Shown: one piece after another, positions 11,800 to 30,603 of the stretch
Position numbering within the stretch: the stretch's first letter is position 1
How the letters are laid out: each line of letters starts with the position of its first letter
Origin: Promethearchaeota archaeon
GTDB lineage: Archaea > Asgardarchaeota > Lokiarchaeia > Sigyniarchaeales > SOKP01
NCBI GenBank assembly: GCA_019057795.1
Contig: JAHLWS010000053.1
Span: forward strand, 32,001 to 96,000
DNA length: 64,000 bases
Reading direction: 5' to 3'
Translations under genes and position numbers: made by a program
The notes under the pieces: generated by a model
The model's database searches: none
What the model was told of the DNA's origin: nothing
The model's input: the letters and a program-made list of their open reading frames with translations, nothing else

Positions 11800-12960
11800 T
11801 TGAAACCCGTCGTTGCATTATCTTATTTCCATCGAAAAATCGGTCCACTAGTTTTTTATTCCTATCCAGATAGTATGCTAGACGAGCAGCTTTCAATCAG
11901 AATCGCAAATATAATGGATCAAACAGTCAGTGAAGGGTTCTTCACCCACTCGTTCGAGAAAAATAACTCAAACAATTATTACTTCGAGATTTCTTCAGAC
12001 TGGGCACGGGGTAATAGAGATATGTTAATGGTTTCGATTATCTTCGATGAACAGACTACTCCAGAAATTGAACAAATTGTGCACAAATTATGCTTAGAAT
12101 TTTCAGAAAAGCTTTTAAAAACTGAAGAGATTTTTTCAGCATTTTACATCTCCGACATTAATAACTTTGAAGAAGAAGATAAAGAGGTTATCTACAAATA
12201 CAATGCGTTGGTTAAACTATGGGTTCAAGAATTATACTGGAATGTACTTGAAGATACAAGGGAAAAAAGCGAAGAAGAAAAGATTGCAACGCTATTGAAC
12301 AAAAAACACATGTTCTTGACACTAAAAAGGTTATCCAATGGTCCAACTACGCTAGAAGGATTAAGAGAATGGTACAACCATGCCTTTCCAGAATTAGATT
12401 TTAAAAAATTAATGGATACGCTTGTTAGAAAACAGTTTATTTTCATAAATCAGATTGGAATTGTAGAAAAGTATGTGTTACTACTAAAAGAAGTTAATGC
12501 CGAAAGAATCCCTCCCGATAGCGTCATAGAATACATCGACGAAAGTCCCGAACTAATTGAACCCGAATTAATAGAGTTATTACTTCCGAAAGTCCAAGAA
12601 TATTTTAGTATTTATGAGAACAAAAGTAAGAAAGAATTAGAAGAAGATACCTTTACATTATTTCAAATTGTGTCTGACCCTAAAAAATATAACGTGCTTT
12701 CAGAATTAAGGCACGGGCTAATAGCTAGCGATAAGCTACCAAAATTAGTCTCCAAGACGACTTTAGACCATTTAAATACTTCGTTAAAGTTTCTAAAAAA
12801 ACACGATATTATCGAAGAATTAAAGTTTAAAAACGAGAGTTACATCTTTTTAAAATCAAATATCCAAATAACTACTGCTTTCCCCGGATATTTAAGAAAA
12901 TCTTTGTCGAAAGAATCTAAACCCATCATAGCAAAAAAGCAAAAACCAAAAGGAAAATAA
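11800..12960 (+). CDS. Longin/uDENN-domain protein with C-terminal winged-helix-like segments (Asgard ESP-type)
   Basis: N-terminal ALSYFHRKIGPLVFYSYP matches the uDENN/longin first hairpin; WARGNRDMLMVS; TTG start after GGAG. Confidence 0.6.
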   Translation: MKPVVALSYFHRKIGPLVFYSYPDSMLDEQLSIRIANIMDQTVSEGFFTHSFEKNNSNNYYFEISSDWARGNRDMLMVSIIFDEQTTPEIEQIVHKLCLEFSEKLLKTEEIFSAFYISDINNFEEEDKEVIYKYNALVKLWVQELYWNVLEDTREKSEEEKIATLLNKKHMFLTLKRLSNGPTTLEGLREWYNHAFPELDFKKLMDTLVRKQFIFINQIGIVEKYVLLLKEVNAERIPPDSVIEYIDESPELIEPELIELLLPKVQEYFSIYENKSKKELEEDTFTLFQIVSDPKKYNVLSELRHGLIASDKLPKLVSKTTLDHLNTSLKFLKKHDIIEELKFKNESYIFLKSNIQITTAFPGYLRKSLSKESKPIIAKKQKPKGK

Positions 12961-28242: not shown

Positions 28243-29643
28243 CTAAAAACGGGTTTCGTCAATATTGGGCATATCAAGTGCGGTTAAAGCTTTTTGAATT
28301 TCTTCGTACGGGAGCTCGTAATCTATTAAATTGCCAATCATGTATTCTTTGTATGCTAATAAATCGAAAAACCCATGACCACTTAGACAGAATACAATAT
28401 TCTTCTTTTCGTTGTTCTCTTTAGCCAATAAGGCTTGATCTATTGTTTCTTTTATAGCGTGAGCAGCTTCAGGTGCGGGTAATATGCCCTCTGTTTTAGC
28501 AAACATTAATCCTGACGCAATAACTTCAGTTTGATGGTGCATAACAGACGAGATTATCTTCTTACTTGATAAAATTGAAATTATCGGCGCCATTCCATGG
28601 TAACGTAAGCCTCATGCGTGAATTGGGCTAGGAATGAAATTGTGTCCGAGCGTATACATTTTTAAAATTGGAGCTTTTTTCGCCGAATCACCGTAATCCC
28701 ATCTATACTCTCCTTTATTAACGCTTGGACAGGCTCTTGGTTCTACCCCAACAATCTCTATATCAGGGTTTTTACCTTGGAGTTTGTCTCTAACGAAGGG
28801 TATTATTAATCCACCTAGATTAGAACCTCCACCCATACATCCTATTAATACATCAGGTTGAATATCAATTTTGTTAAGTTGAGCTTTCACCTCTTGTCCT
28901 ATTATCGTCTGATGTAATAGAACAAAATTTACAACGCTACCCAATGAATATCTTGCTTTATCACTTCTCATACTATGCTCTATTGCTTCAGATATAGCAA
29001 TTCCTAGGCTTCCAGGGTGATCTGGATCGTTTTCATAGTAATATTTTCCAGAATCCGTAAGGTTAGAGGGGCTTGCATGAACTTGTGCATTAAAAGCTCT
29101 CATTAATATTTTTCTTCCAGGTTTTTGCAAAAAACTAGCTCGTACCATATAAACCGTGCAATTTATATCGAATAAATTACACCCGTAGGACAAGGCTGAA
29201 CCCCATTGACCAGCGCCAGTTTCAGTTATCAACTCACTTACCCCATCTCTTTTAGAATAATAGGCTTGAGCTAAGGCTGTATTTGGTTTGTGTGAACCAG
29301 TTGGAGATACTGATTCGTTTTTAAAAAAAATTTTAATGTCATCGCCTACTATTCCAAGTTCTTTTTCTAAACCACAGGCTCTATGAAGAGGGGTGGGGCG
29401 GTATGATTTTGCAAAAAGCTCCCTTAATTCTTTCGGGATGGAGATTAATGGATCTTGAGAAATTTCTTGAAGTACACATTCTTTTGGAAATATTGCAAAA
29501 GCAAGTTCTGGAGGTGCAGGTTTTCCATCCATTGGATTTATTAAGGGCGTCATAGGAGCAGGTAAATCGGGTAAAATATTAACCCATTCCTTTGGTATTT
29601 CGTTTGGTTCGAGTAAAATTCTTATTTTATTAAAATCTATCAT
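28243..29643 (-). pseudogene. trpB2: Tryptophan synthase beta chain 2 (TrpB2), one frame interrupted by an in-frame TGA at 28612-28614 (nonsense allele, read error or recoding)
   Basis: YRPTPL, SPTGSHKPN (PLP Lys), TETGAGQWG, GGGSN; the two track ORFs are one frame reading PIHA*GLRYHGMAP. Confidence 0.85.
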
Positions 29644-29726
29644 ATCTTATTCCTTTTTAATATTATCTCATCATCTATTTTATATGATGTCTCATTTTAA
29701 GATTGGAGCCCAATTATAATAATGCC

Positions 29727-29744
29727 CAATTGCAAATGCAATTG
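29727..29744. promoter_or_regulatory. Perfect inverted repeat CAATTGCA-N2-TGCAATTG in the trpB2 leader
   Basis: Read directly; function inferred. Confidence 0.45.
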
Positions 29745-29801
29745 AAATTTAAAATTCGATGTTTAGAAATAAAAAGAGCGCGAAGTATGGTTTATCCATT
29801 G

Positions 29802-29822
29802 AAAAAGCGTTTTCATGAACGC
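29802..29822 (-). terminator. Candidate attenuator hairpin plus U5
   Basis: Minus strand GCGUU-CAUGAA-AACGC-UUUUU, overlapping the leader stop codon. Confidence 0.55.
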
Positions 29823-29863
29823 CAAGGCCACTGCCAACAAAAAAGAATATCTTTAGTAACCAT
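29813..29863 (-). CDS. Trp-rich leader peptide MVTKDILFCWQWPWRS (trpL-like)
   Basis: ATG GTT ACT AAA GAT ATT CTT TTT TGT TGG CAG TGG CCT TGG CGT TCA TGA; three TGG in five codons, about 170 nt upstream of trpB2 on the same strand. Confidence 0.8.
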   Translation of the reverse strand: MVTKDILFCWQWPWRS

Positions 29864-29946
29864 AGATATAAACCATGCTTTTATATAATGATATTATTAT
29901 TGTCAGAAACTTATAAAGTTAATCCTCTGTGTTAAAAATGTATCTG

Positions 29947-30351
29947 TTATTTCCCTTCAAAAATATTTGCTAAATTTTTAGCTGCTACCCTCATTACTTT
30001 AACGGTCTTCATTAAAGTGTCAATAAGAGTTCCCGCACATACAATTACTAAACGTCCGGCATTACTGACGATAATGTAGCCATCTTCTGCCCTCACAATT
30101 ATTTCACTTAGCTCTTCTTGAAATAATGTTTTGATTGTTGAGCTTCCGGTCATCAGCAAAGCGCTCGCAAGCCCACAGAATTGATCTCCGTCAACTTTAT
30201 ATTGCGGAAGCGCCGAAAATGCGATCTGGTACCCTTCTACGCTTACGAGAGCAATGGCTTCTATGTCTGCGTTTGAAGTTATAAATGTAATTTGAGGGCT
30301 AATTTTTTCAATTTCTTCAGGTCCTATTCCTAATTCGCTTCCAAATTCGAT
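29947..30351 (-). CDS. Roadblock/LC7 (MglB-like) domain protein; proposed ATC start at 30351
   Basis: Extended frame contains IEAIALVSVEGYQIAFSALP..FCGLASAL and ELSEIIVRAEDGYIIV; the track ORF (TTG 30159) lacks half the domain. Confidence 0.8.
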   Translation of the reverse strand: MEFGSELGIGPEEIEKISPQITFITSNADIEAIALVSVEGYQIAFSALPQYKVDGDQFCGLASALLMTGSSTIKTLFQEELSEIIVRAEDGYIIVSNAGRLVIVCAGTLIDTLMKTVKVMRVAAKNLANIFEGK

Positions 30352-30603
30352 AATACATCACATTCTGGGGTAATTTTTTAATTTATTTGAATTTAAAGAT
30401 TTTACAATATTTTTATTATAATTAATATAATGTTGATACTTTTTATTTTTTTATTTTTTGTTCCTCCTACTTTTAATAGAGTTACTATTTAAATCTTTTA
30501 TCTGAAGAAAACAAAATCCTTAAAAAAATAATTTCTATTGCTAAAAGTTAAAATAGATCATTATTATTCTATATAAAAATAAATTTGAAAAAAAAATGAA
30601 ATT

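Follow-up and report, generated by a model that had tools for sequence, protein, structure and literature searches.

Leader-peptide attenuation is the textbook proof of the coupling between transcription and translation in bacteria. In trpL, the leader of the Escherichia coli trp operon, the Trp codons are followed by an Arg codon and then by the stop codon, and the hallmark of leader-peptide attenuators is a pair of mutually exclusive RNA structures, a terminator and an antiterminator. Other leaders work differently: that of pyrBI senses UTP through pausing of the polymerase, not an amino acid through stalling at codons, and TnaC senses free Trp, induces a catabolic operon at high Trp, requires the residues W12, D16 and P24, and acts through factor-dependent termination. 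The characterised trp control of archaea is that by TrpY of Methanothermobacter, a DNA-binding repressor that acts at the promoter and involves no leader ORF. The polycysteine leaders of mycobacteria, which are leaderless short ORFs, respond to Cys (10.1101/834739).

So could a device of this kind operate in archaea? No archaeal leader-peptide attenuator was found in a full-text literature of about 8.4 million articles, and a 2026 cross-domain review of termination makes no mention of leader peptides (PMC13675443). The element described here lies upstream of trpB2 in an Asgard archaeon of the Loki type and is in all probability a device by which ribosomes gauge tryptophan; to date, such devices have been described in bacteria alone.

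The leader ORF of trpB2 and its genomic setting

The window, that is, the whole stretch of 64,000 nucleotides that was analysed, carries on its minus strand trpB2 (28243-29643), a gene for a tryptophan synthase beta-like protein of the PALP fold. Upstream, on the same strand, lies a leader ORF of 16 codons and a TGA stop (29813-29863; ATG at 29863, TGA at 29815-29813) with the predicted product MVTKDILFCWQWPWRS, in which the three UGG codons (29836-29834, 29830-29828 and 29824-29822) are separated by one codon each; from the leader stop to the trpB2 ATG (29643) there are 169 nt. An ORF of this size is below gene-caller length, which bears on the annotation of such loci. The TATA box TTTATAAG (29910-29917, minus strand) is located 47 nt upstream of the leader ORF, within a context, GGATTAACTTTATAAGTT, that is near-invariant in the genus (columns T13-A23 of alignment A1), and the transcript is predicted to start about 20-25 nt before the leader ATG, a position derived from the distance at which archaeal start sites usually follow the TATA box. 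At the other end, the sequence AGGA (29651-29654, minus strand) is the likely ribosome-binding site of trpB2, and no helix over this site was predicted by folding of the leader or by duplex folding. The initial annotation had placed the upstream ORF, its UGG codons, a hairpin, U-tracts, the TATA box and the trpB2 ATG on the minus strand, and all these coordinates proved to be correct.

The trpB2 gene itself contains an in-frame TGA (28614-28612) in the motif HA*GLRYHG, at a position occupied by Gly in relatives (HAGGLRYHG). Apart from this codon, the gene has no frameshift and its product is 96% identical to the protein of the nearest relative; the trpB2 frames of the relatives are intact and comprise 459-521 codons. 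Use of TGA as a sense codon, a possibility prompted by this codon and by an ATG-TGA succession at a neighbouring gene, was rejected given that TGA-ended ORFs extend no further than others, and because TGA behaves as a normal stop genome-wide, the break in trpB2 is either a recent nonsense change or an assembly or consensus error. The neighbouring gene, which encodes a Roadblock/LC7 protein (PF03259), lies upstream and has no canonical start before the domain (30351-30365, minus strand; ATG at 30363, then TGA); its start codon is probably ATT or ATC.

The genome (4.95 Mb, 31% G+C) is 100% complete by markers, with 7.5% contamination, and in this marker-complete genome no match was detected for trpA (PF00290), trpC (PF00218) or trpE (PF00425); trpB2, present in a single copy, is the sole tryptophan-making gene found. 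The organism seems to retain trpB2 alone, possibly for indole salvage, and the Trp leader has been kept nonetheless. No further Trp leaders were found elsewhere in the same genome, and its 7,024 intergenic short ORFs include nothing convincing as a leader for other amino acids. Also in this genome, a structured element of about 140 nt occurs five times (contig positions C49:59285, C56:80712, C62:50348 on the minus strand, C63:62845 and C80:88745; loci L161 and L162), with a long-range helix GACUCCUGC...GCAGGAGUC, a helix AUAGGG...CCCCUAU, two inner hairpins and a 12-codon ORF, MTPA[PS]PWIFVFW; two of the copies lie near contig ends, and the element has no match in Rfam.

Recurrence of the leader and conservation of its reading frame

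Trp codons are clustered to this degree in 3 of the 7,024 intergenic ATG-started short ORFs of the genome, so that about 0.001 such ORFs would be expected by chance in the 300-nt gap before the sole trp gene found. As far as sequence comparison goes, however, it is the recurrence of the leader in relatives that is the decisive evidence against chance. The trpB2 gene was located in 54 of 61 related genomes, and the upstream regions were then read. In all 31 loci of the same genus, trpB2 is preceded by a short frame that ends with W-x-W and 0-3 (rarely 7-9) further codons and has a helix over its stop; these ORFs, for example, MATEKNTFWRWQWPWRF, MATLRILSWQWPWRWQ and MFTKINLLKCWHGLWRFKTLFQR, are found at the homologous place, contain 2-5 Trp codons and, in 27 of the 31 cases, have the ATG at the aligned column. 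Among 19 loci that belong to six other families within the order and class, 15 also have the succession of W-x-W, 0-4 codons and a stop before trpB2, within an unrelated nucleotide context; MDDVMIGTRTFPWAWRP is one example, and two others end with TWPWH and FWRWQWCWRWQ, respectively. In a phylum-wide sample of 40 loci (L097-L136), of which 11 without a tblastn anchor and one anchored outside the retrieved sequence were left unscored, the leader was seen in families f8 (with the ending FWAWRWLTWP), f9 and f12 and was not seen in families f13, f14, f17, f23 and f25. When the family was searched with a covariance model of the sensor domain (R1), matches, mostly single-copy, turned up in 68 of its 101 genomes and in all of its 13 genera. 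The initial annotation had suggested a search for Trp-codon upstream ORFs and hairpin covariation across Lokiarchaeia and other Asgard genomes, and the outcome on both counts, including the covarying helices described below, bears out that expectation.

The same leader precedes trpD-led operons, supported by Pfam matches (PF00591, PF00218 and PF00697), in four lineages, namely, the genomes G055, G199 and G230 and genus g19. In G055, a single-contig genome of 6.04 Mb from the same order, there is one leader before trpB2 and another before the trpD-led operon, and these two have a near-identical core and a middle part of the ORF that has diverged without any indel or stop. The extra leader copies of G199 and G230 are located upstream of trpD-trpC-trpF-trpB, and in genus g19, the leader is found at the trp operon, with a leaderless trpB2. 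On this distribution, the leader tracks the tryptophan pathway rather than one gene. Because single-contig genomes of the same order carry both leaders, cultured strains with the leader may exist.

Several peculiarities were noticed at these loci. The trp-operon leader of genome G060 (L095, 11620-11700, minus strand) reads FFWSWSWHY-stop, with no ATG, GTG or TTG in the Trp frame and with an ATG frame one base off, across a T6 run; the absence of a start can be attributed to a homopolymer error, a non-canonical start or decay of the leader. In family f7 (L043; L095 at about 11800-11850, minus strand; L038), the motif GAATTGGACTGGAATT adjoins the TATA box at the promoter of trpB2 and at that of the trp operon and is a candidate protein operator that would act in addition to the leader. 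In genus g19, an ORF of 80-85 residues with the motif IIFGPEKSKTAKFI and no Pfam match lies between the Trp leader and trpD (L148:548-802, L149:549-788 and L150:3597-3845, minus strand). Finally, G199 contains a copy of the leader domain (C17:11060-11167, L151, minus strand; 65 bits) that encodes MKAINCLFSFWFFFWRF, with five Phe and two Trp residues, and is followed by a 71-residue ORF, a CxxCxxCC-domain gene and a gene for a beta-keto acid cleavage enzyme, with no trp genes; by eye and unaligned, the 71-residue ORF resembles the small ORF of g19.

Is the frame actually read? The invariance of the UGG codons alone cannot separate coding from RNA constraint, given that the same bases are used in one of the helices (P2, below), and because UGG has no synonymous codon, it was the frame itself that was tested. 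In 26 of 29 lineage representatives, the sequences of which can mostly not be aligned from one family to another, no other upstream frame stays open for as long as the Trp frame (binomial p = 4.5e-10, a value that overstates the significance because the lineages are related); the median open stretch is 32 codons in the Trp frame versus 10 in the other frames, and an in-frame ATG is present in 27 of the 29. Indels inside the leader ORF are of 3 or 6 nt, and those after the stop are of 1-3 nt. The N-terminal part of the ORF varies freely, and ORFs of 12 to more than 40 residues occur, with only the Trp run and the position of the stop being kept. Both the domain that includes the upstream ORF and a downstream block of two hairpins (H4-H5) are conserved above the level of the four-fold sites of trpB2, with values of 0.82 for the former and 0.93 for the latter versus 0.54 for the four-fold sites in the comparison with L009. 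Of these patterns, the open Trp frame and the sizes of the indels favour translation of the leader ORF.

Structure of the leader RNA

The helices of the leader were defined by hand, and pairs were counted on 31 leaders; RNAalifold on the MAFFT alignment recovered the structure in part, the hairpin columns being misaligned. Three helices make up the sensor domain. The first, P1, encloses the upstream ORF and is formed by the 5' arm AUGGUUUA (29869-29876, minus strand) and the 3' arm UAAACCAU (29787-29794, minus strand), the latter preceded by a conserved CAAUGG/CAUUGG (29801-29796); in one of its column pairs, 12-100, G-C (18 sequences) alternates with A-U (8 sequences). Support for a longer P1 that would reach the start codon is weak, about half of the cells being paired. 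In the second helix, P2, the 5' arm GGUUACU (29855-29861, minus strand), which consists of the third base of the start codon and codons 2-3, pairs with the 3' arm AGUGGCC (29826-29832, minus strand), which overlaps the region of the first and second Trp codons; 79.7% of the cells are paired, G-U pairs included. The third, P3 (29807-29822, minus strand), is the hairpin that spans the stop: its 5' arm GCGUU (29822-29818) begins inside the last UGG, the loop CAUGAA contains the UGA stop, and AACGC (29811-29807) closes the helix, in which 94.2% of the cells are paired and three of the five pairs change on both sides.

Taken together, P1, P2 and P3 are paired in 85.6% of the cells versus 34-47% with slid partners (31 leaders), nine of their pairs change on both sides, and their covariation score was reached by none of 500 shuffles. 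Because G-U pairs are present, the structure can be assigned to the sense-strand RNA. The sensor domain folds at -24.7 kcal/mol (z = -2.55). The principle extends beyond the genus: a helix starts at -3 to +8 nt from the last UGG in all 32 lineage representatives, with the stop codon inside its span in 26 of the 32, and the window after the Trp codons folds modestly better than shuffled sequences (median z = -1.1).

What follows the stop-spanning helix is much less uniform. In the present sequence, P3 is followed by a U5 run (29802-29806, minus strand), and the two were flagged as terminator-like by a consensus scan; the initial annotation took this small hairpin and its U5 for the terminator. 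As a unit, however, the pair is not conserved, with the U-run varying from 0 to 5 within the genus and amounting to 0-3 U in many congeners, and across the lineages, a run of at least four U within 18 nt of the stop-spanning helix is found in 15 of 32 only. In family f2, the stop-spanning hairpin is long and, in most loci, has U4-5 behind it, an arrangement reminiscent of a classical terminator. Farther downstream lies a U-rich spacer (29745-29786, minus strand; U5 at 29775-29771) that includes the second U-rich tract, CUCUUUUUAUUUCU (29778-29765, minus strand). The sequence of this spacer drifts approximately neutrally and its composition is kept (a mean of 49% T and about two T4+ runs in the 31 leaders), a pattern compatible with a candidate archaeal termination zone.

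Between the spacer and the ribosome-binding site there are three more hairpins. H4 (29727-29744, minus strand) consists of CAAUUGCA, UU and UGCAAUUG, with 80.6% of the cells paired and five of six pairs changing on both sides. H5 (29693-29724, minus strand), formed by CAUUAUUA and UAAAAUG around the loop UUG-N-YCCAAU, has 92.6% of the cells paired, with UA/AU swaps in 9 and 7 sequences; its loop is near-invariant. No other block of the leader is as conserved as H5, which is found together with the sensor at trpB2 as well as at trpD (also in L148-L150 and L154-L159) and may be a second input. H6 (29669-29689, minus strand; CAUCAU, loop, AUGAUG), which was recognized by eye, is directly 5' of the ribosome-binding site, and in other species, again by eye, other complementary arms take its place. 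Pairing of the CAUUGG that precedes the P1 3' arm with the UCCAAU of the H5 loop was considered and rejected; it fits some species and not the present one. A search of Rfam yielded no match for the leader or its structures, and with its approximately 280 nt, the leader represents a new RNA family absent from that database. The geometry that had been proposed initially, with a stalled ribosome masking the 5' arm of the hairpin, fits everywhere, whereas the RNA around it is more elaborate than envisaged, with P1, P2, the spacer and two or three hairpins in addition.

Proposed conditional termination, competing explanations and known attenuators

An ORF that is conserved in frame, linked to trp genes, and covered at its Trp codons and stop by covarying helices is a well-supported Trp sensor at the level of sequence. 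We consider it rather likely that this leader peptide controls the downstream trp gene (trpB2, and trpD-trpC-trpF-trpB in relatives) by conditional premature termination. Under this model, transcription would begin about 20-25 nt upstream of the 16-codon leader ORF, and when Trp-tRNA is plentiful, the ribosome would complete the ORF and leave, allowing the RNA to adopt a closed domain in which P1 surrounds the ORF, P2 joins the start region to the Trp codons and P3 extends over the stop. With the domain closed, the U-rich tract behind it would be where the polymerase terminates, intrinsically through oligo-U or through aCPSF1/FttA. The archaeal polymerase indeed terminates at oligo-T, a hairpin can enhance this termination, and U-tracts are recognized by aCPSF1 (PMC13675443). 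A shortage of Trp-tRNA would make the ribosome stall with a UGG in the A site, where it would cover one arm each of P2 (3') and P3 (5'), so that the domain would stay open and the polymerase would read through into the trp gene. Direct occlusion by the ribosome would thus replace a separate antiterminator, which would be unnecessary because the helices are occluded by the ribosome itself. Translation of the ORF, stalling and premature termination as the output are all steps that we infer, and because a ribosome at the stop codon also covers P3, the proposal requires that release of the ribosome be faster than escape of the polymerase. Furthermore, the termination model leaves H5, for all its conservation, without a role, which counts against it, as do the scarcity of U-runs after the stop-spanning helix, the modest folding energies after the Trp codons, the lack of a conserved alternative pairing, the start-less trp-operon leader of G060 and the stop codon within trpB2 of the present genome. 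Of the initial reading of the locus as a Trp attenuator, the sensor has stood up to recurrence, frame and covariation, and the hairpin at the stop with its U5 has not stood up as a conserved unit.

This brings us to a serious rival, according to which the same sensor stalls at UGG and the output is initiation of trpB2 translation or the processing or stability of the RNA, brought about by refolding of the leader (H4-H6). The approximately 125 nt of conserved, covarying H4, H5 and H6 between the spacer and the ribosome-binding site would be superfluous to a pure terminator, and the U-tracts after the stop-spanning helix are inconsistent, so this explanation, although unlikely in our estimation, has to be taken seriously; moreover, there is a precedent for a ribosome stalled on a sensory short ORF having a translational output (10.1101/834739). 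A translational or stability output has to contend, however, with a ribosome-binding site that is free of any predicted helix and with the distance between this site and the Trp codons, which, at 115-357 nt in most lineages (56-83 nt in three), is far beyond a ribosome footprint. The retention of a U-rich composition after the sensor domain in the face of sequence drift also speaks for termination.

Alternatively, the leader could be an RNA-only or protein-bound element in which the ORF is incidental, such as a riboswitch-like fold of UGG-NNN-UGG or a site of the kind bound by TRAP, the protein that binds triplet repeats in Bacillus. The bases of the Trp codons do pair in P2 and P3, UGG has no synonymous codon, the repeats are regularly spaced and H5 resembles a ligand- or protein-binding hairpin. 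A mere RNA element, however, would not account for the Trp frame being open, with a start, far more often than the other two frames, for the stop that lies 0-3 codons after the last UGG in most lineages, or for the retention of W-x-W and a stop by distant families within unrelated surrounding sequence, and in the absence of a match to any Rfam family, T-box or Trp_leader, we regard this explanation as quite improbable. As for TRAP, this protein (PF02081) is absent from all 60 relatives searched, most of them carriers of the leader, and is represented here by a broken fragment only; regulation by TRAP was rejected on these grounds, and the leader has no array of 9-11 GAG/UAG triplets spaced by 2-3 nt. 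The fragment (C7:6071-6184 of the present genome, L160:1501-1614, minus strand; 40 bits, E = 1.4e-9), which contains a TGA and a TAA and adjoins two genes for ABC-transporter ATPases, represents either contamination or what is left of a transfer.

That the ORF encodes a functional small Trp-rich peptide which is co-expressed with trp genes and senses nothing is very doubtful. The version in family f8, with 45-46 residues, is conserved over its full length between two genomes, and some bacterial trp leader peptides act in trans (PMC7298713), yet the freely varying N-terminus and the range of ORF lengths, from 12 to more than 40 residues with only the Trp run and the stop position kept, are not what such a function would predict. 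A switch in which a hungry UGG causes slippage into another frame that is open to the gene hardly merits consideration: both alternative frames stay open for about 25-30 codons past the stop of the upstream ORF, which is unusually long for an AT-rich spacer, but in this window they end near 29766 and 29757, with more than 110 nt left to the trpB2 ATG, the A-poor, U/C-rich spacer by itself lowers the frequency of stop codons, and the spacer sequence is not conserved.

Returning to conditional termination, how does the Asgard leader compare with the systems known from bacteria? As in described attenuators, there is an enrichment in codons for the regulated amino acid, and biosynthetic genes lie downstream across loci and species; the mutually exclusive terminator and antiterminator that are the hallmark of such leaders were not found, no conserved alternative pairing having emerged when the sensor domain was duplex-folded with the remaining leader sequence. 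With the enterobacterial trpL (RF00513), the Asgard leader shares the short ORF with late Trp codons followed by Arg and the stop, the location at the 5' end of an mRNA for Trp biosynthesis, the helices over the Trp codons and the stop, and the U-rich sequence downstream. The two differ, however, in that the Asgard Trp codons, 2 to 5 in number, alternate with other codons instead of being adjacent, and no match in sequence or structure exists between them: the Rfam model of Trp_leader (RF00513) gave no hit even at E <= 10, and neither did the T-box give any hit. Moreover, instead of a 2:3 antiterminator, which was not found, there is a closed three-helix domain that encloses the ORF and in which the Trp codons are paired with the region of the start codon; a U-rich zone of archaeal type, and not a tight hairpin with a U-run, is the candidate signal for termination; and the Asgard leader has a further conserved hairpin module and operates in a host with a eukaryote-like polymerase and no Rho.

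The polycysteine leaders of mycobacteria (10.1101/834739) are similar in other respects: the short ORF that serves as the sensor is at the transcript's 5' end or close to it, an RNA structure is (or, in the Asgard leader, would be) obstructed by the stalled ribosome itself, and leaders of one kind are present at several loci of a pathway, a 'ribulon'. These leaders differ from the Asgard one in the amino acid and the domain of life, and in the Asgard leader, the ribosome-binding site is mostly 115-357 nt away (56-83 nt in three lineages) and looks unpaired. Physical blocking of a hairpin by the ribosome that translates the leader, such that a separate antiterminator is needless, would be a feature shared with the pyrBI leader of E. 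coli. TnaC resembles the Asgard leader as a short Trp-containing peptide, and both would have the ribosome acting at or near the stop codon and factor-dependent termination as the output, but the Asgard leader keeps only its Trp run, with an N-terminus and a length that vary, and the genes downstream are biosynthetic. With TrpY, the likeness lies in the regulation of the same pathway, and the motif that adjoins the TATA boxes in family f7 might represent a coexisting protein operator.

If the proposal is true, the leader would provide a natural, sequence-defined test bed for transcription-translation coupling in archaea and for conditional termination by the eukaryote-like archaeal polymerase, in the lineage that is nearest to eukaryotes. 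On balance, we lean slightly towards the following view of its novelty. The leader would represent ribosome-mediated attenuation in Archaea, in which charged tRNA-Trp is gauged and coupled to a eukaryote-like polymerase, probably through oligo-U or aCPSF1/FttA; its closed domain, which buries the start codon, would be unlike the 1-2-3-4 attenuator; it would constitute a 'ribulon' that encompasses trpB2 and trp operons in several Asgard classes; and H5 would add a second input. Thus, the kind of device is known from bacteria, and what sets the present one apart is the domain of life, the architecture of the RNA and, probably, the machinery of termination.
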